Shown here: positions 329-21,127 of the stretch, one piece after another
Layout: every line of letters starts with the position of its first letter
How positions within the stretch are numbered: the first letter of the stretch is position 1
From: a virus
Strand: one strand, 5' to 3'
Virus genome (UHGV): UHGV-0103843
DNA: 21,182 bases
Made by a program: the position numbers and the translations under genes
Notes under the pieces: generated by a model
The model's input: the letters and a program-made list of their open reading frames with translations, nothing else
What the model was told of the DNA's origin: nothing
Databases searched by the model: none

Positions 329-1207
329 TCAGTAGTTATGTACTGAAGGAGGTAATTCTTTATTCTTGAGTCTCATCCATGCGGAAAGATTCGTTGGTCC
401 ATCTGGCTCATTAATATCAACATCTCGTGTGTGGTTTATTAAAACGTCTCTCGCCATTCCGATAACATACGAGAATTCATGACCGTAGTCGTAGCATCTG
501 CCGGAATAGTTCGATTGAATTTGTTTTAATGCCGGATACAGTTCGCGGAATAATGCCTGTGAGCGGTTGGCATAATCCCATAACCATACAAGGCTGTTTT
601 CTTCTTTTGCAGAAAGCTCGTTGGTTTTCTTCTCTTGTTTGCCGATGAACTCACCTTCAAGCACTACCCTGTGGATGTACTCTACGGCCAGCGGGATTTG
701 TTCAATTGAAAGTTCATCAATGCTGTCAATACCAAAACGCTGATGAACCATATTGTATGCATCGTCATAGCGAAGTCCTTTCTTTCCTACCAGCATGTTT
801 ACTGCATCGCGTAGCGGCGTTCTTTCCTCAACAGTGGTTTTCTTGCCTTTCACATACTCGCCATGTTTGCGAATTGAAGGTAGAACTTCTGCTGTTACCC
901 ACTTGCGGAATTTGTGCGGGACCGAACCTTTATTGACAGCATCGCGGCAGCGCAGAACCAATGTATACATACCTGATTCGCTAACAATGCTTAGATTCTG
1001 CTCACCACCAAGGGTGTAACTTAAAGTTACTCCCTTTTCATCGTCATCAAGTGCAGTAAGCGCCTTGCGTGAGTTAGTCAGGGTTAAAGCATCACAAACA
1101 TCTTTTGCTACAAACCACGGCTCACCGCATTTGTTGATGACGCGGATTTCACTGTCGCCGAATTTGAAGATGGTGAAATCGTTTTGTGCCTTTGCTATAC
1201 TTTTCAT
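329..1207 (-). CDS. ant: Antirepressor Ant
   Basis: Translation from the internal Met [43 protein letters not shown]... matches P22 Ant as remembered. Start moved from the track start (1273) to the ATG at 1207, which has an AGGAAA ribosome-binding site. Position downstream of arc as in immI. Confidence 0.85.
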
Positions 1208-1275
1208 GTCAATATTTCCTAATCCGATTTGTTGATACCGAAGCCCTGACTGTTCCCGCAGTTGGGGCTTCAACT
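1208..1275 (+). ncRNA. sar: Candidate sar-like antisense RNA covering the ant ribosome-binding site and the arc-ant spacer
   Basis: Plus-strand extended -10 TGCTATACT at 1193-1201 inside the 5' end of ant, pointing opposite to ant. The 68-nt arc-ant spacer contains an inverted repeat GAAGCCC...GGGCTTC (about 1241-1272). P22 is known to make a 68-69 nt sar RNA from this position. Ends are not mapped. Confidence 0.4.
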
Positions 1276-17221: not shown

Positions 17222-17710
17222 TTATTTCCCTTCTGCTTGCTTCCCAGTGGTGAACGAATCAACGCTGCCGCCGGAATAGCAGTCAAGATCAATTGCGACT
17301 TGTACCGCTTCTCTCGCATTTTTGCCACAGTGCATGGCAGTGCGAGCAATCAGCCCACCACTACCAATGGCGTATGGTTCAACCTGTGGCGAAATACTCG
17401 CCCGCGTTTCGCCTTTCTCTTTTGAGATGATGTAAGCACGACCAGCACCGATGATAGCAAGCGCTGTGAAAGAGAATGTCGGGAGAAATTCTGATGCATA
17501 CGTCAGGTTGTTCTTAAGCAGTTCCTGCAATTCCATCTCCGCGCCGCAATCACCAGAACAACCTAATGCAACCACTTTACTGCCGCAAACCTCCCACCCA
17601 GATTCTGGCGGTGTGTAAATCTTTTGTTCTGTATACGAACACACAACATCACCAGATGTTGCCTGGGTGTCAGATGCCAGGGTCTTTCCATCCCATGCAA
17701 TAGTGGTCAT
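17222..17710 (-). CDS. HslV-like / proteasome beta-type Ntn-hydrolase peptidase (phage cargo)
   Basis: 162 aa beginning [21 protein letters not shown] (Thr exposed after Met removal), an internal Lys near position 30, and the motif [12 protein letters not shown]. Pattern resembles HslV as remembered. Stop lies 5 nt before the gene 3 start. Confidence 0.6.
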
Positions 17711-17711
17711 A

Positions 17712-17954
17712 TCATGCTCCGGTGGTGAACAGGTCTAACGCTTCCTTCGATTTACGCACCGCTTCGATAGTGCGGGTCGTGATATCTGAATTAGCGCCGC
17801 CTGACTGGAAGTGAATTTTAAATAGCTCAAGCTTCAGCTCGTCAGTGCCAATGAATTGAAATGCTTCCTCTGCGGCTGCGTTCTGGTTCATGACCAGTTT
17901 GTAAATCTCTAACTGGAATTTCTGTTCTTCAGTCATGGGAATAATCTCTGCCAT
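17712..17954 (-). CDS. Small hypothetical protein translationally coupled to the HslV-like gene
   Basis: 80 aa, GGAG ribosome-binding site. Its stop TGA is 1 nt from the ATG of the peptidase gene. Confidence 0.5.
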   Translation of the reverse strand: MAEIIPMTEEQKFQLEIYKLVMNQNAAAEEAFQFIGTDELKLELFKIHFQSGGANSDITTRTIEAVRKSKEALDLFTTGA

Positions 17955-18057
17955 TGTTGGCTCCGTTTATCCGTTAAAAGGGATATCAGTTAATTTATCC
18001 CGTGTAGGGTATAAGCCATTATCAAAGCCACTCTGTAGGGAATGGCTTTTGTAATAA

Positions 18058-18419
18058 CTACTGTTCGCTTAGCTTCTGCTTCAGCAAGTAACCTTCCAGC
18101 ATCCAGATTTTATTCACCGCATTTTCGCGGGCGATCTTACGCCCGATCTCCTGGTCAAAGTTCTCCGGGCTGGCGCACGCAGACTCGCCGGTTACGGTAA
18201 AGCCGTTCTCCAGCACAAGAACGCAGAAGGTCAGCAGTTCGAGTGATTGCGGGCCGGTTCAGGCTCTTCCTGCTTCAGCCACAACGGTGAGCTGCGATAT
18301 CCGTCCGCGCCGGTAAAGTAAAACTCGCCTGAGATAACAGCTTCAATGCGTTCCGGGGTAACACGCGCGGCCGTTTTGCCTTTCTCAACGATTTCTTTTT
18401 CGATTTGCTGTTCGTTCAT
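18058..18419 (-). pseudogene. Frameshifted hypothetical phage gene
   Basis: Reading frame opens at the ATG at 18419 (MNEQQIEKEIVEKGKTAARVTPERIEAVISGEFYFTGADG...) and hits a stop at 18231. A different frame continues with clean coding character (LLTFCVLVLENGFTVTGESACASPENFDQEIGRKIARENAVNKIWMLEGYLLKQKLSEQ) to a stop at 18058. Confidence 0.45.
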
Positions 18420-18701
18420 AATTATGACCCTGTGGAGTGGTTGCTTGATTAGGATGTCTTTCCATCAGTCCGCCACCACAAAGAATCTTTTTTGCCATAA
18501 GGCAGGAGGTTCATCTTTCAGTGGCTGCCAGTGTTATTTCCCCACTTACTGGCTTGGGTTGCTTCGTGGCACTGCCGTAACTGGTGGTGCACAGATTTAG
18601 TTAAATCTGTTCTCGCCTGAACTATCTTTTACATACCCGGATTGTGGGGTGTAAATCACGGTTTCATTATCAAGCCCACCCGTAGATGTGCTTTGGAATG
18701 G

Positions 18702-18902
18702 CTACTGGCGGTCATTATGCTCGTAACGAGATACCGTCTTCCCGTTCTGGTTCATCACGTAGGCGACCTCGCCAGGTTTCAGGAATACATTTTTGTCCAT
18801 TCCCGATACCGCGATGCTCTGCTGCCCCGGATTGAACCCTACACTCAACCCGCAATGAATCTCTTCACCGCCACCTGGCGACATTACTTTTACTGTTAAC
18901 AT
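18702..18902 (-). CDS. Small hypothetical protein
   Basis: 66 aa with a strong AGGAGAAG ribosome-binding site, just downstream of the post-Rz terminator. Confidence 0.5.
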   Translation of the reverse strand: MLTVKVMSPGGGEEIHCGLSVGFNPGQQSIAVSGMDKNVFLKPGEVAYVMNQNGKTVSRYEHNDRQ

Positions 18903-18926
18903 GCTTCTTCTCCTGCTTCTTCTGGG

Positions 18927-18953
18927 AATAAAAAAGCCCGACAGAAGTCAGGC
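18927..18953 (-). terminator. Intrinsic terminator after the lysis cassette
   Basis: Minus strand GCCTGAC-TTCT-GTCGGGC (7-bp stem including one G-U pair) followed by TTTTTTATT, about 20 nt after the Rz stop. Confidence 0.55.
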
Positions 18954-18973
18954 TCTGTTATTTGGGTGACGAA

Positions 18974-19447
18974 TCACTTAAGACACTGCTCTTTGATGTA
19001 GTCCTGCATGCCGCGAATCATTTTGTCAGCGGTTGCGATTCCGTCCCGGTGATCGAAATAATTCCGTCGAGCGTCTGGAGTAAGTTCGGGGGCTCCTGCA
19101 TCATCCACGCCGGTGGAGGAGGTGGCTTTTGGCACTCCAGGGCAGGTTGCGGCGATGCGCAGCCGTTTAGCGCCAGAATCGACATCACGACGCAAATCGT
19201 TAATGGTCTTTTTCGCATCGGACAATTCCTTCGTGTATTTGGCATCCAGTGCAGCGACATCACGCTGGCGGGTCTGCATGTCTTTAATGGTGGCGGTCGC
19301 CAGGAGGAGTTTCTCAGTGGCCTTATCGCGCTGGTCTCTGTAAGTGATGGCGTTGTCGCGGTAGTGGTTCACGAAGAAAGCCAGTGCGCCGATTAACGCC
19401 AGCACCAGCAACTGCAGCCAGTAACGCTTAACCAGTGCGCTAATCAT
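18974..19447 (-). CDS. 15: i-spanin Rz
   Basis: 157 aa with an N-terminal transmembrane helix ([15 protein letters not shown]) and a coiled-coil periplasmic domain. ATG overlaps the endolysin stop as ATGA. Contains an embedded Rz1 frame. Confidence 0.85.
19018..19218 (-). CDS. o-spanin Rz1 (lipoprotein embedded in the +1 frame of Rz)
   Basis: 66 aa from [20 protein letters not shown] (lipobox-like LNGC), followed by a Pro-rich segment [16 protein letters not shown] that resembles lambda Rz1. GAAGGAA ribosome-binding site. Confidence 0.75.
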
Positions 19448-19893
19448 GACAGGAACAGAGCTCGCTCTGCCTTGCGGCGATTCGTGAGCCCCGGCATCAC
19501 CTTTCCGCCTGATTTATTCCAGCGCAGAAATTCATCTGCCGCGCCTTTTATATCGCCAGCATTCAGCTTTTTCAGCAGTGTAGATGTGGAAAGAGCACGC
19601 GACCCAACGTTGTAAGCGAACGACACCAGTGCGTCGAACTGGCCTTGTGTCAGCTTCACCCTGACAACTTTCAGCACGTCATTCTCATAACCAACAAGCC
19701 CTGTTTTCAGAAGCCTGTCAGCGGTTTGCTGGTCGATAGTCATACCGCGCTTTACTGGCTTTCCGTCAACCGGATGGGTCCAGCCATAGCCGATGGTCCA
19801 CGGCGCATCTCCCGTTCCGGGGTCTGGGTAAGCAGTCAGCCGACAACCTTCAAATTTTTTTATCAGAGCAATTCCGTCAGGACTGGTTTGCAT
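19444..19893 (-). CDS. 19: Endolysin, GH24 (T4-lysozyme-like) family
   Basis: From the internal Met [39 protein letters not shown], carrying the Glu / Asp / Thr catalytic pattern of phage lysozymes. C-terminus ...[11 protein letters not shown] matches P22 gp19. GGGAG ribosome-binding site; start overlaps the holin 3' end. The track start at 19965 would overlap the holin by 89 nt, so the 19893 start is preferred. Confidence 0.85.
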
Positions 19894-20200
19894 CGTCAAC
19901 TCCCGCCTTTTTTGCTGCAAGTTTTTTAATAAGATTGCCGATCGAATCGGTGCCGATGTATCCAATAAAGACGCTGGCTATGTAGGCGAGGTTGCTGCTC
20001 AGGCCGATAAAGTCCAGAAGGTCACGAACGAACCAGGCAATCATCGCGCACATCAGCGCATCAATTAGCGTTTTTGTTACCGCGCCGCCGTTATAGCGAC
20101 CACGCAGATACGCCATGATAAAAGCCAGCATTGCACCAATACCCTGCTCCTTGGCGGCAAGTAGCGCAGCGATGAAATCTTGTTTGTATGGCATTTTCAT
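19877..20200 (-). CDS. 13: Class I holin (lambda S / P22 gp13-like) with a dual-start motif
   Basis: From [39 protein letters not shown]...; close to P22/lambda holin as remembered. Strong GGAGGTGA ribosome-binding site. Met1-Lys2-Met3 dual start. The track start at 20278 is a TTG well upstream. Confidence 0.9.
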
Positions 20201-20308
20201 AGGCCTCACCTCCGATTTTTCGGATGGCGCTGTGTGTGTATGAAAAGGATCAGGCTTCACTGGCTGGATTTTCAACAAAGCACGTAGTGATTGATTCCCG
20301 TGAGCCTG

Positions 20309-20333
20309 AAATAAAAAACCCGCTCAAGGCGGG
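20309..20333 (-). terminator. Intrinsic terminator between the tRNA pair and the holin gene
   Basis: Minus strand CCCGC-CTTGA-GCGGG followed by TTTTTTATTT. Confidence 0.6.
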
Positions 20334-20389
20334 AATGTTAGGGTGTGGCAATGTCAGCTCTGCGGCTGAAGATACCCTGGCTGGGTTTT

Positions 20390-20465
20390 TGGTGCCGGTT
20401 AACGGATTTGAACCGCTACCTATTCACTTACAAGGCGACCGCTCTACCATTGGAGCTAAACCAGC
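20390..20465 (-). tRNA. tRNA-Thr (anticodon UGU)-like, phage-encoded
   Basis: 76 nt folded by hand: 7-bp acceptor stem with one G-U pair, D-stem GCUC/GAGC with the GG loop, anticodon loop CUUGUAA (U33, UGU, A37), T-arm AGCGG-UUCAAAU-CCGUU, discriminator A and encoded CCA. The anticodon stem has one mismatch. Confidence 0.55.
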
Positions 20466-20470
20466 ATGTT

Positions 20471-20545
20471 TGGCGGGACAGCGTGGACTCGAACCACGAT
20501 AAGAAGGTTAACAGCCTTCCGTAATGACCTTTATACGACTGACCC
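20471..20545 (-). tRNA. tRNA-Asn (anticodon GUU)-like, phage-encoded, atypical D-arm
   Basis: 75 nt folded by hand: anticodon stem GAAGG/CCUUC, loop CUGUUAA, T-arm CGUGG-UUCGAGU-CCACG, discriminator G and CCA as in E. coli tRNA-Asn. Acceptor stem has one U-U mismatch and the D-stem is weak, so it may be degenerate. Confidence 0.5.
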
Positions 20546-20546
20546 A

Positions 20547-20591
20547 AATAAAAAAAGCCACCGTTGCAACTTAAGAGTCACTAACGGCAGC
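20547..20591 (-). terminator. tR'-like intrinsic terminator immediately downstream of Q
   Basis: Minus strand GCUGCCGUU ... AACGGUGGC (9-bp stem with two G-U pairs, large loop) followed by UUUUUUUAUUU, ending 1-2 nt before the first tRNA. Confidence 0.45.
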
Positions 20592-20601
20592 TTACCCTCT
20601 A

Positions 20602-20631
20602 ATTATGGCTAAATGGCTAATTGCATGTCAA
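20602..20631 (-). promoter_or_regulatory. Candidate late promoter (PR'-like) overlapping the 3' end of Q
   Basis: Minus strand -35 TTGACA (20631-20626), an 18-bp spacer, and -10 CATAAT (20607-20602) directly after the Q stop codon. The predicted transcript would enter the tR'-like hairpin almost immediately. Confidence 0.4.
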
Positions 20632-21127
20632 GGCTTTTAACAGCAACATGCTTAACTTTCTCAACACGTTTACGCATTTTGAAAGCATTTTGCATTGGCT
20701 GGTATAAAACAAATAATGACGCTTTCAGGATGTCGTCAATTTCGTTTCTACAGGTTGCCAGTGAAGGTTTTCTCCATCCCTCGCCACCACGTCCACACAT
20801 CTTGCGTGGCTTTGCAGTCGCGTGATAGTAGGATGCAATTGCTCGCTTAGATGAACCATGAGCGTAGTAGCTGAGGAGGATGCCAAAGGCTTTCTTGTCA
20901 ATGTACATGACGGAATCGACGACCTGAGAAATCAACATTCCATCATCATCATTACACATTGGCCTTGTCATAATTCTTCCCGGCTCTACGCTCTCCATGA
21001 ACTTCGCTATTACGCTGCTCATGCGCTTTTCCAGACGACCTGAATAAACCCATGCGCCCCACAGTTCAAGCCAGCCATTCAGCCACTCGTGCTGCTCTTT
21101 GGTGAGGTTTAGTTCTCTTATGCCCAC
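20609..21127 (-). CDS. Late-gene antiterminator Q (phage 82 / Q-family type)
   Basis: 172 aa containing ELWGAW and RPMCNDDDGMLIS, which resemble conserved features of Q82-type antiterminators as remembered. Immediately upstream of the lysis cassette. The track start is a GTG with GGGAGAAGG upstream; the exact start is uncertain. Confidence 0.75.
   Translation of the reverse strand: MGIRELNLTKEQHEWLNGWLELWGAWVYSGRLEKRMSSVIAKFMESVEPGRIMTRPMCNDDDGMLISQVVDSVMYIDKKAFGILLSYYAHGSSKRAIASYYHATAKPRKMCGRGGEGWRKPSLATCRNEIDDILKASLFVLYQPMQNAFKMRKRVEKVKHVAVKSLDMQLAI

Follow-up and report, generated by a model that had tools for sequence, protein, structure and literature searches.

The window analysed here, i.e., the complete stretch of 21,182 nucleotides from the viral genome UHGV-0103843, carries a spacer of 408 nt between the stop codon of a Q-type antiterminator gene (TAG, 20611-20609) and the holin start codon (ATG, 20200). 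A preliminary description made from the letters and their open reading frames had claimed that this spacer of about 400 nt is not empty, and we indeed found it to be occupied by a promoter, two hairpins followed by U-runs and two tRNA genes, all of them at the positions given there and on the minus strand, which the description had not specified. The order of the elements (late promoter, leader terminator, two tRNA genes, second terminator, holin) likewise agreed with that description, and it matches the curated annotation of near-identical DNA in Sf6 and phage 21. The individual features are as follows:

20609..21127, minus strand: Q late-gene antiterminator of the Q21 family, 172 aa (ORF, PF06530, homology)
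20626..20631, minus strand: -35 hexamer of PR', TTGACA, within the last Q codons (promoter scan, alignment)
20607..20622, minus strand: putative Q-binding element (QBE), tandem 8-bp direct repeat AATTAGCC/ATTTAGCC in the promoter spacer (sequence, homology)
20602..20607, minus strand: -10 hexamer of PR', CATAAT, directly after the Q stop codon (promoter scan, alignment)
20589..20595, minus strand: predicted transcription start (20595) and -10-like sigma-dependent pause element TAAGCT (20594-20589, +2 to +7) (homology)
20546..20593, minus strand: leader terminator tR', hairpin 20593-20555 and U-run 20554-20546 (fold, homology)
20471..20545, minus strand: tRNA-Asn(GUU), 75 nt, CCA encoded, discriminator G73 (ARAGORN, Rfam)
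20390..20465, minus strand: tRNA-Thr(UGU), 76 nt, CCA encoded, discriminator A73, a rare variant (ARAGORN, Rfam)
20309..20333, minus strand: second intrinsic terminator, CCCGC-CTTGA-GCGGG followed by TTTTTTATTT (T6ATTT) (terminator scan, fold)
19877..20200, minus strand: holin of the lambda S / P22 gp13 type with MKM dual-start motif (PF05106, translation)
19893-19444: endolysin, after the holin
19447-18974: Rz, after the endolysin

Plus-strand open reading frames across the same region (e.g., 20224-20502, 92 aa) overlap the tRNAs and terminators and were deemed spurious.

From the promoter through tRNA-Thr (20640-20390) the window is about 97% identical to the DNA of Sf6, whose record (AF547987) lists gene 59/Q, PR', qut, tR', tRNA-Asn and tRNA-Thr in the same order and with the same spacing, and phage 21 (AJ237660) likewise shares 97% identity with the window from +2 on. 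The region is thus very probably the late-gene control region of a P22-like, Sf6-type lambdoid prophage, and its two-tRNA cassette is of the type first seen in phage 21. Directly upstream of PR' lies the Q21-family gene itself, the product of which matched PF06530 at 1.6e-25 in a domain search and, at E ~1e-92, the structures determined for Q21 (6jnx and 6p18). It is 99% identical to Sf6 gp59 (171/172 residues) and 82% identical to the Q protein of phage 21, which comprises 161 aa as opposed to 172 aa in the window. Since the C-terminal, DNA-contacting part differs from that of phage 21 Q (e.g., H95 to R), the target specificity of the window protein is probably a different one; the authors of the phage L paper likewise argue for an altered Q target specificity in phage L.

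The promoter at the 3' end of Q matches the sigma-70 consensus at 11 of 12 positions (TTGACA 20631-20626, an 18-nt spacer, CATAAT 20607-20602), and the promoter scan returned just two matches of this quality in 20 kb on both strands, the second being a P22-type Pant. It had been described as a candidate late promoter inside the end of Q and overlapping the stop codon. The hexamers and their spacing were confirmed, but Q contains no more of the promoter than the -35 hexamer and the upstream portion of the spacer, the -10 hexamer beginning directly behind the stop codon. In the alignment, TTGACA is conserved without exception in Sf6 and in phages L, 21 and 2851, and the Sf6 record labels the promoter at this very site PR'; the element is the known PR' of the Q21 family and goes beyond a mere candidate. 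Concerning the -10 region, the window differs from phage 21, which has a weak hexamer instead of CATAAT. No promoter serving the tRNAs themselves was found, PR' being the sole strong minus-strand promoter match in the spacer.

Between the -35 and -10 hexamers, the tandem direct repeat AATTAGCC/ATTTAGCC represents a putative QBE to which Q would bind. In phage 21, the QBE is likewise a direct repeat in the promoter spacer; it consists of two TGAGCA copies, and its C:G pairs at -21 and -13 are essential (PMC6606751), whereas the putative subsites of the window read TTAGCC. The register is nevertheless the same, as the C residues of the repeat at 20616 and 20608 fall exactly on -21 and -13 if 20595 is taken as +1. 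This predicted start is the position to which the start of the 'aRNA' in the phage 21 record (4652) maps. The paper on phage L proposes the same repeat as QBE. Immediately downstream, TAAGCT at +2 to +7 is invariant in all five aligned sequences (window, Sf6, L, 21 and 2851) and is predicted to act as a -10-like pause element, a type of element which takes part in Q loading (PMC6606751). Promoter, QBE repeat, pause element and tRNA-Asn are all identical between the window and Sf6.

Shortly downstream of PR' and ahead of the late genes, an intrinsic terminator is found, so that the hairpin with U-run which had been placed immediately behind the promoter was recovered at 20593-20546. It folds with -20.2 kcal/mol (z = -5.4), none of 200 shuffled sequences folds as well, and it ends in a U7 run; the length of its stem and the interruptions in it kept it from being picked up by a simple terminator scan. 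The phage 21 terminator has the identical sequence, and that of Sf6 differs only by one T in the T-run. The Sf6 record labels this hairpin tR', and in the phage 21 record, which annotates a pQ promoter and a terminated 'aRNA' of 50 nt, it forms the 3' part of this RNA. For the window, we predict that termination releases a leader RNA of about 45-50 nt. The first base of tRNA-Asn directly follows the U-run of tR'.

The arrangement follows the same logic as PR'-6S RNA-tR' of phage lambda, in which a constitutive promoter behind Q yields a short leader that is terminated unless Q brings about read-through. The lambda PR' leader, at about 194 nt, is however far longer than the approximately 50 nt predicted here, the lambda Q protein is unrelated in sequence to Q of the Q21 type, and lambda itself carries no tRNAs. 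A fusion of the lambda tR' itself to the same tRNA cassette as in the window is found in HK446, IME10 and Dewey.

Both tRNA-like sequences of the preliminary description are recognised as tRNA genes. ARAGORN called tRNA-Asn(gtt) at 20545-20471 and tRNA-Thr(tgt) at 20465-20390, and the Rfam model RF00005 gave 55.3 and 55.4 bits, respectively, at a gathering score of 29, so that the very low scores which might have spoken against them did not appear; on the same scale, the genuine K-12 tRNA gene tyrU reaches 53.4 bits. The anticodon loops, CUGUUAA and CUUGUAA, are identical to those of K-12 asnT and thrU, the T loops are GGTTCGAGTCC and GGTTCAAATCC, and both genes possess U33, a purine at position 37, the D-loop GG, a GTTCRA T loop and an encoded 3' CCA. 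The matching discriminator bases, also part of the earlier claim, were found as G73 (Asn) and A73 (Thr), as in K-12 asnT and thrU. Asparaginyl-tRNA synthetase recognises G34, U35 and U36 together with G73, and threonyl-tRNA synthetase G1-C72, C2-G71, G35 and U36. All of these nucleotides are present in the two sequences, and the same positions match K-12 asnT and thrU. Single-sequence folding was uninformative (z = -1.7 and -1.6; the minimum free energy structure of tRNA-Thr is no cloverleaf), and tRNA structure was therefore judged by covariance models and covariation.

One imperfection had been assigned to each tRNA, and its bearing on function or decay had been left open. The acceptor-stem mismatch of tRNA-Asn (U4.U69) and the anticodon-stem mismatch of tRNA-Thr (G27.A43) are indeed present; the former is, however, not the single irregularity of tRNA-Asn, which has a further U13.U22 in the D stem, and tRNA-Thr carries C instead of A at position 14, which is unusual yet conserved in the lineage. 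Such non-canonical positions could suggest that the genes have lost their function and are in decay, being carried along between tR' and the lysis genes as remnants of host tRNA genes captured long ago, a reading to which also the Rfam scores of about 55 bits, below those of host asnT and thrU (~73 bits), and the five substitutions of the window tRNA-Thr relative to the common form would point. Relatives contribute to this picture as well: phage 2851 keeps only the first ~24 nt of tRNA-Asn, the second 'tRNA' of phage L/ST64T reaches 42 bits and is not called by ARAGORN, and the cassette is absent from most Q21-type loci.

Comparison across phages nevertheless makes decay very unlikely. Among 129 collected copies, 102 of which are Asn+Thr pairs, compensatory double changes affect six base pairs in tRNA-Asn and eleven in tRNA-Thr, preserving both cloverleaves across lineages; for covariation score and paired cells, none of 500 shuffles reached the observed values, and controls with slid positions dropped to 0-4 pairs. 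The apparent defects are conserved and non-random, with U4.U69 kept in 16 of 18 Asn variants and G27.A43 in 21 of 25 Thr variants. The sequence of tRNA-Asn is 100% identical to the copies of Sf6 and phage 21, and exactly this sequence occurs in 90 of the 129 copies; the Q/tR' units preceding it are of two or more unrelated types. Neither tRNA shows damage in its anticodon loop, T loop, discriminator or CCA end. The window tRNA-Thr is 71/76 identical to the copies of Sf6 and phage 21, differing at positions 26, 40, 45, 59 and 70, and scores 6 bits below the common variant (55.4 vs. 61.5 bits for the Sf6 copy), yet all five substitutions are structure-neutral, as they fall on variable positions or yield G.U pairs (G.U replaces a Watson-Crick pair in two cases). 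Two further copies (L070 and L141) carry this variant, which looks like a hybrid, with U3 as in the phage 21 type and G70 as in the type of Klebsiella phages. As far as can be judged from these comparisons, the imperfections are conserved lineage features and not signs of decay. Given that the two mismatches pointed out earlier persist throughout the lineage and that the stems covary at other positions, the question of functional or decaying genes is answered largely in favour of functional tRNAs. A downstream tRNA of any kind was present in just 6 of 32 species-representative loci with a Q21-family gene, and the cassette is thus dispensable for late regulation.

The borders of the cassette offer another option, in which the tRNA sequences serve mainly as landmarks at the DNA or RNA level, i.e., as recombination junctions for the exchange of modules or as sites where cleavage by RNase P/RNase E separates leader and lysis mRNA, with decoding being incidental. 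Homology to Sf6 and phage 21 stops right after the CCA of tRNA-Thr, phage 2851 breaks within tRNA-Asn, the lambda-type tR' is joined to the same tRNA-Asn at a shared T-run, and one IMG/VR copy (L145) combines the 5' end of the phage tRNA-Thr with a 3' part identical to host thrU. Junctions at conserved sequence are, however, expected as a by-product of homologous recombination, and use as a junction leaves the compensatory changes that keep four stems, the intact anticodon loops and the encoded CCA unexplained. We consider this highly improbable, even more so than decay.

Downstream of tRNA-Thr, the window and Sf6 are unrelated: Sf6 continues with a lambda/21-type segment, the window with a terminator-bearing segment and a holin leader of the HK225/mEp237/Gifsy-2 type. 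The second hairpin with U-run, which had been noticed ahead of the holin, was verified at 20333-20309 by both the terminator scan and folding (-8.4 kcal/mol, z = -2.3). Relatives have a hairpin and T-run at the same place with other stems (GCCAG/CTGGC, CCCGCC/GGCGGG or GCCTGC/GCAGGC), and Gifsy-2 has the stem GGTCGC/GCGGCC there, upstream of the same holin leader. Judged by this pattern, the second terminator belongs to the holin module and travels with it, and tRNA cassette and holin module are separate pieces of a mosaic. The holin gene (PF05106, 8.5e-30) is the first gene past the regulatory and tRNA region. An in-frame TTG extension of its reading frame to 20278 was rejected, as the ATG at 20200 has a GGAGG ribosome-binding site and the MKM motif. 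Rejected as well was a relic of isrK (the Gifsy-type PR' leader sRNA, Rfam RF01394) at 20395-20313, which scored 16.1 bits against a gathering threshold of 50; in this alignment the first hairpin is unformed and the terminator alone aligns well, and the homologous region of Gifsy-2 gave no isrK match. Further intrinsic terminators on the same strand lie inside the late operon (18956-18933 and 10859-10838), which fits the need for processive antitermination.

With respect to a benefit for the phage, codon usage of the late genes in the window was compared with a sample of 34 K-12 genes, which stands in for the true host genome. Relative to this sample, ACA is the codon with the most significant difference (16.8 vs. 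5.2 per 1000, 3.2-fold, p = 1.6e-13), and Asn codons in total are raised (50.9 vs. 37.6 per 1000, 1.35-fold, p = 6e-5). In the comparison of AAC and ACA use proposed in the preliminary description, ACA is thus enriched; the AAC fraction of Asn codons (0.56) is not above that of the K-12 sample (0.64), leaving total Asn demand as the only basis of a supply case for tRNA-Asn. In the coat gene, 22 of 24 Asn codons are AAC, and an AAC bias in the coat gene was also described for phage L (PMC8022706). Phage SfI, with tRNAs for Asn and Thr downstream of Q, shows the same ACA bias, while its authors found no clear rationale for tRNA-Asn (PMC3636060). Codon supplementation by the tRNAs has been discussed for both phages (PMC8022706; PMC3636060). 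The host-rare codons TCA, GGA and AGA are equally enriched in the late genes of the window, without a matching tRNA at this locus.

Taking the evidence together, we favour (with a probability of roughly 0.85) a model of Q-antiterminated late transcription through tR', in which the tRNAs are cut from the late transcript and support late translation. Host sigma-70 RNA polymerase would start at PR', with +1 near 20595, and pause at the -10-like TAAGCT (+2 to +7). Without Q, transcription would terminate at tR' (20593-20546), releasing a leader RNA of about 50 nt. Once Q has accumulated, two Q protomers would bind AATTAGCC/ATTTAGCC, load onto the paused polymerase and render it terminator-resistant by the 'nozzle' mechanism of Q21; loading and antitermination by this mechanism are known for phage 21 (PMC6606751). 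The modified polymerase would then read through tR', the two tRNA genes and the second terminator (20333-20309) into the genes for holin, endolysin, Rz and the virion, whereas unmodified, leaky transcription would most likely be halted by the second terminator before the lysis genes. From the late transcript, host RNase P and 3' processing enzymes could excise tRNA-Asn(GUU) and tRNA-Thr(UGU), which would raise the decoding of Asn codons and of the host-rare ACA, both used heavily by the late genes. For the window, the start site, the Q dependence, and the processing, charging and benefit of the tRNAs are predictions made from sequence and by analogy to these relatives.

Functional tRNAs could also have a main role other than late codon supply, e.g., counter-defence against anticodon nucleases or colicin-type toxins, or expression in the lysogen as a locus of benefit to the host, where leaky read-through of the constitutive PR'/tR' would make the tRNAs and the second terminator would confine transcription. 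In line with such roles, terminators flank the cassette as they would an accessory unit, phages can do without it and exchange it as a module, and codon supply gives no clear rationale for tRNA-Asn. The transcriptome study of a BTP1 lysogen, in which the module is 97% identical, mentions the two tRNA genes alongside highly expressed prophage genes but treats them apart from the list of these genes (PMC7067206), which is the sole, indirect hint that mature tRNAs of this kind are made; the supplements of this paper contain no tRNA values, and the BTP1 culture includes spontaneously induced cells (PMC7067206), so that the RNA-seq signal is no proof of expression in true lysogens. Against such roles, the anticodon loops equal those of host asnT and thrU and show none of the alterations that evasion of a nuclease would call for, no separate promoter precedes the cassette, where the U-run of tR' adjoins tRNA-Asn, and the ACA bias fits the supply model well. 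We therefore regard a main role of this kind as quite unlikely. Somewhat less improbable, but still unlikely, is that the cassette is more than a codon supplement: a constitutive PR' and a tR' immediately followed by tRNA-Asn might, through leaky read-through, supply both tRNAs to the lysogen, with the terminator of the holin module as safety stop, and U4.U69, C14 and G27.A43 might mark nuclease escape or other non-canonical tuning. If this applied, the hybrid tRNA-Thr would illustrate that recombination inside tRNA genes yields viable chimeras.

Among known systems, the module shared by the window and Sf6 is also found in BTP1, vB_SosS_Oslo, SPN9CC and many E. coli prophages, where the NCBI pipeline (PGAP) calls both tRNAs. 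Phage 21 shares the leader from +2, tR' and tRNA-Asn in identical form, and phages SfI and L/ST64T have the same tRNA-Asn at the same position, followed in L/ST64T by a divergent second gene annotated as Leu-UAA where the window has an intact tRNA-Thr. The parallel drawn earlier to tRNA clusters downstream of Q in Stx phages holds for position: phage 2851 has Q, then three tRNAs and stx2A, and shares the 21-type leader and tR', with tRNA-Asn reduced to the stump of about 24 nt. Its tRNAs are, however, Ile/Met(CAT), Arg(TCG) and Arg(TCT), whereas the window carries Asn and Thr and no stx, so that the resemblance to the ileZ-argN-argO cluster of Stx phages is a positional one only. The promoter-terminator-tRNA unit is thus already known, and its finding in the window is correct but ordinary, as annotations of the unit in Sf6 and phage 21 date back some two decades and papers on SfI, L and epsilon34-related prophages describe it. 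It does serve as a clean annotation anchor, from which the strand, the Q type and the point where the late operon begins can be fixed for this P22-like prophage.

The 408-nt spacer between the stop codon of Q and the ATG of the holin gene was found to contain, on the minus strand, every feature that the preliminary description had proposed for it: a late promoter, a hairpin with U-run, two tRNA genes and a second terminator, so that this stretch of about 400 nt is by no means empty. This confirms the observation, and the interpretation is supported as well, since the Sf6 GenBank record annotates the same series (PR', qut site, tR', tRNA-Asn, tRNA-Thr), calling PR' “nearly identical to phage 21 late promoter” and the tRNAs “similar to phage 21”. 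The window represents a P22-like prophage in its late half, comprising Q, lysis, terminase, portal, scaffold, coat, ejection proteins, ant and sar, with the following features in Q, the spacer and the late operon:

21127..20609, minus strand: Q-like ORF, stop codon TAG at 20611-20609
20631-20626 and 20607-20602, minus strand: PR', -35 TTGACA and -10 CATAAT separated by 18 nt, 11/12 match to the sigma-70 consensus
20622-20607, minus strand: putative Q-binding element (QBE), tandem 8-bp direct repeat AATTAGCC/ATTTAGCC in the PR' spacer, identical to Sf6
20594-20589 (+2 to +7), minus strand: -10-like element TAAGCT
20593-20546, minus strand: tR', long hairpin and U7 run
20545-20471, minus strand: tRNA-Asn(gtt)
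20465-20390, minus strand: tRNA-Thr(tgt)
20333-20309, minus strand: second terminator, 5-bp all-G:C stem, 5-nt loop, T6ATTT
20200, minus strand: holin ATG, next gene after Q
18956-18933, minus strand: intrinsic terminator after Rz, strong match
10859-10838, minus strand: intrinsic terminator after the coat gene, strong match

Q itself is identical to Sf6 gp59 at 171 of 172 positions, shares 82% identity with Q of phage 21, is assigned to PF06530 and matches solved Q21 structures (E ~1e-92). The promoter overlaps its stop codon, as described before, and the unusual 18-bp spacer is explained by the tandem repeat filling it. The QBE of phage 21 likewise lies between -35 and -10; it consists of TGAGCA repeated in direct orientation, and its C:G pairs at -21 and -13 are essential (PMC6606751; bioRxiv 10.1101/651190). 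The phage 21 record annotates Q, the promoter and a 50-nt “aRNA”, i.e., the terminated leader, whose first base maps to window position 20595; taking this as +1, C residues of the window fall exactly on -21 (20616) and -13 (20608). An equivalent repeat was put forward as QBE for phage L, where the authors tied its altered sequence to divergence of Q in the C-terminal part that contacts DNA (PMC8022706), and the window Q shows the same kind of C-terminal change relative to phage 21 Q, e.g., H95 to R. TAAGCT does not vary between the window, Sf6, L, 21 and the Stx2c phage 2851 and, by analogy to the Q21 system, would be the expected sigma-dependent pause element for Q loading.

Directly downstream of PR', the tR' hairpin folds at -20.2 kcal/mol (z = -5.4; 0/200 shuffles as good). 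At the position of the second terminator, relatives of the downstream segment always carry a hairpin with T-run, the stems being GCCAG/CTGGC, CCCGCC/GGCGGG, GCCTGC/GCAGGC or, in Gifsy-2, GGTCGC/GCGGCC; this constancy of place with differing stems supports a conserved terminator belonging to the holin module. A small hairpin at about 20369-20353 (CAGC..GCUG) is apparently exchanged for CGGC..GCCG in relatives, e.g., at loci L089 and L102. Identity of 20395-20313 (minus strand) with the Gifsy-1 sRNA isrK was dropped, as the Rfam match reached 16 bits (threshold 50) and the terminator alone aligned. The two terminators further down the late operon lie on the coding strand and have stems of 10 and 9 bp, each with a T-run, which is consistent with a need for processive antitermination by Q in late transcription. 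The stretch 17710-18974 (minus strand), between Rz and the small-terminase region, holds short ORFs only (e.g., 18702-18902, 66 aa), beside a 162-aa ORF at 17222-17710 (minus strand).

Both tRNA genes are called by ARAGORN and score 55.3 (Asn) and 55.4 bits (Thr) with the Rfam tRNA model (gathering score 29 bits), compared to about 73 bits for host asnT and thrU and 53 for host tyrU. CCA is encoded in each, and the anticodon loops and discriminators (G73 for Asn, A73 for Thr) are the same as in asnT and thrU of E. coli K-12; the anticodons are GUU and UGU, as described before. The single mismatches noted earlier were likewise found, namely U4.U69 in tRNA-Asn and G27.A43 in tRNA-Thr, and tRNA-Asn has an additional U13.U22 in the D stem.

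The preliminary description had left it open whether these genes are functional or decaying. We consider the possibility that they are decaying passengers, to which their imperfections might point, against 129 copies of the tRNA cassette, gathered from IMG/VR by means of the distinctive tRNA-Asn D arm and from the other loci compared here. The exact window tRNA-Asn sequence recurs in 90 of these 129 copies; Asn+Thr pairs make up 102/129, other arrays being Asn+Gly(UCC), Asn-Phe-Thr-Arg(UCU) and similar. The copies comprise 18 different sequences of tRNA-Asn and 25 of tRNA-Thr, among which compensatory double substitutions at 6 pairs of tRNA-Asn (e.g., A6-U67 to G-C, G7-C66 to A-U, A28-U42 to C-G) and 11 pairs of tRNA-Thr keep both cloverleaves. 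None of 500 column shuffles reached the observed covariation score and cells paired, and slid-partner controls collapsed. This covariation of intact cloverleaves contradicts decay, and the imperfections are lineage features rather than fresh damage, because U4.U69 persists in 16/18 Asn and G27.A43 in 21/25 Thr variants. Position 14 of tRNAs is near-universally A, the partner of U8. In tRNA-Thr (20390-20465, minus strand) it is C, a family trait as judged from its conservation in >90% of lineage variants.

Codon use was compared between 17 window late genes (5347 codons) and, as host stand-in, 34 annotated K-12 genes (13,636 codons). Of the two codons proposed for comparison, AAC and ACA, the latter shows the most significant difference of all codons (16.8 vs. 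5.2 per 1000, p = 1.6e-13; 29% vs. 10% of Thr codons); the AAC fraction in the late genes overall (0.56) is not above that of the K-12 sample (0.64). Total Asn is raised (50.9 vs. 37.6 per 1000, p = 6e-5), and AAC makes up 22/24 Asn codons of the coat gene. These results agree with the published ACA bias of SfI (PMC3636060) and AAC use in the coat gene of phage L (PMC8022706). TCA, GGA and AGA are likewise enriched in the window late genes, and sister cassettes carry tRNA-Gly(UCC) and tRNA-Arg(UCU), readers of GGA and AGA. A role of the tRNAs in counter-defence or lysogen benefit is conceivable as well, although their anticodon loops equal those of the host.

Reasoning from the experimentally defined Q21 system, PR' would fire constitutively and RNA polymerase would pause at TAAGCT; without Q, termination at tR' would yield a leader RNA of about 50 nt. 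With Q on the repeat, a terminator-resistant polymerase would read on through both tRNA genes and the second terminator into the lysis and virion genes, passing 18956-18933 and 10859-10838 by the same route, and the tRNAs would be excised from this late transcript. No promoter of their own was found for the tRNAs and tR' adjoins tRNA-Asn; they are thus most simply late products, and an additional supply could come from the early operon by read-through under N-type antitermination. RNA-seq of a BTP1 lysogen sets the two tRNA genes of BTP1 apart in listing highly expressed prophage genes (PMC7067206); that culture includes spontaneously induced cells.

The series of PR', tR', tRNA-Asn and tRNA-Thr is already known and widely annotated. 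Window 20640-20390 has ~97% sequence identity with Sf6 and with many relatives, among them BTP1, vB_SosS_Oslo, SPN9CC and S107, and phage 21 shares 97% identity from +2 through the end of tRNA-Thr. Asn and Thr tRNAs downstream of Q were reported for SfI and likewise Sf6, ST64T, PS3 and p21 (PMC3636060); the same position is treated for phage L (PMC8022706), and P22-like prophages in PMC2629481. Part of a 541-bp query from the Q end to the holin start matches 884 of 5426 complete E. coli genomes, and RefSeq annotates tRNA-Asn and tRNA-Thr among the top matches listed.

The cassette is optional: a Q21-family gene is present in 32 species-representative genomes, but only 6 of these carry any tRNA in the 1.5 kb downstream of it, in 4 of the 6 this tRNA-Asn. 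It also sits behind other Q types: in about 14 copies it is preceded by a hairpin that matches lambda tR' at 100% identity (J02459 44734-44781), joined at the shared T-run. Among these fusions are HK446, IME10 and Dewey, to which the window virion genes are most closely related. The parallel drawn to Stx phages is borne out by phage 2851 (L005 1501-1573; alignment columns 87-160), where the 21-type leader and tR' are followed by only the first ~24 nt of tRNA-Asn, then by Ile/Arg tRNAs and stx2. This stump marks a mosaic junction inside the tRNA-Asn gene.

The homology that the window shares with Sf6 and phage 21 breaks off directly behind the tRNA-Thr CCA; the following ~70 nt (20386-20319) show only ~70% resemblance, to Klebsiella-phage sequences, and the holin leader from 20318 onward matches HK225, mEp237, Louie and Gifsy-2. 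The window tRNA-Thr variant is rare among the cassette copies collected, occurring only here and at two further loci (L070, L141), and is always accompanied by the window-type downstream segment. It differs from the Sf6/phage 21 form at positions 26, 40, 45, 59 and 70; three differences fall at variable unpaired positions and the other two replace a Watson-Crick pair by G.U (U3-A70 to U3.G70, G30-C40 to G30.U40), the Rfam score dropping from 61.5 bits for that form to 55.4 for the window variant. Its U3 is as in the 21 type, its G70 and T-loop A as in the Klebsiella-phage type, which suggests a recombinant origin.

Could the tRNA genes then serve as a recombination landmark? Junctions at and inside them speak for it, as does L145, an IMG/VR copy in which phage tRNA-Thr is fused to host thrU, and such a role is real as a by-product, but it leaves the conservation of structure unexplained. 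In L145, the tRNA-Thr is of phage type over its 5' 17 nt and identical to K-12 thrU over the other 59 nt, pointing to phage-host recombination within the tRNA gene; the chimera lies downstream of tRNA-Asn, its acceptor stem is pairable via G.U, and tRNA-Gly(UCC) comes next. Phage L carries a second gene (L002 1075-1146), annotated as tRNA-Leu(TAA) in L and ST64T, with ends as in the tRNA-Thr lineage. It gave no ARAGORN call and only 42 bits with Rfam, its anticodon arm lacks a normal 5-bp stem and 7-nt loop, and it may be degenerate or non-canonical. The full arrangement of Q, tRNAs, window-type terminator and holin was seen in a single E. coli genome of the collection (L158, NZ_LR536431.1, 19594-21745; 99.1% identity), joined to entirely different, myovirus-like virion genes and with holin and Rz annotated as frameshifted; it exemplifies a module moving between phage types.

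At the other end of the window, sar RNA gave a full-length Rfam match (1209-1275, plus strand; 71.6 bits vs. 43) and runs antisense to the beginning of an ant-like ORF of 314 aa (329-1273, minus strand). Two strong promoter matches face each other in 1449-1505, an 11/12 match at 1505-1477 on the minus strand and a 10/12 match at 1472-1500 on the plus strand. Taken together, the elements resemble a P22-type immI region (Pant/Pmnt, arc-ant, sar), Pant being the sole 11/12 sigma-70 match besides PR' in 20 kb on both strands.
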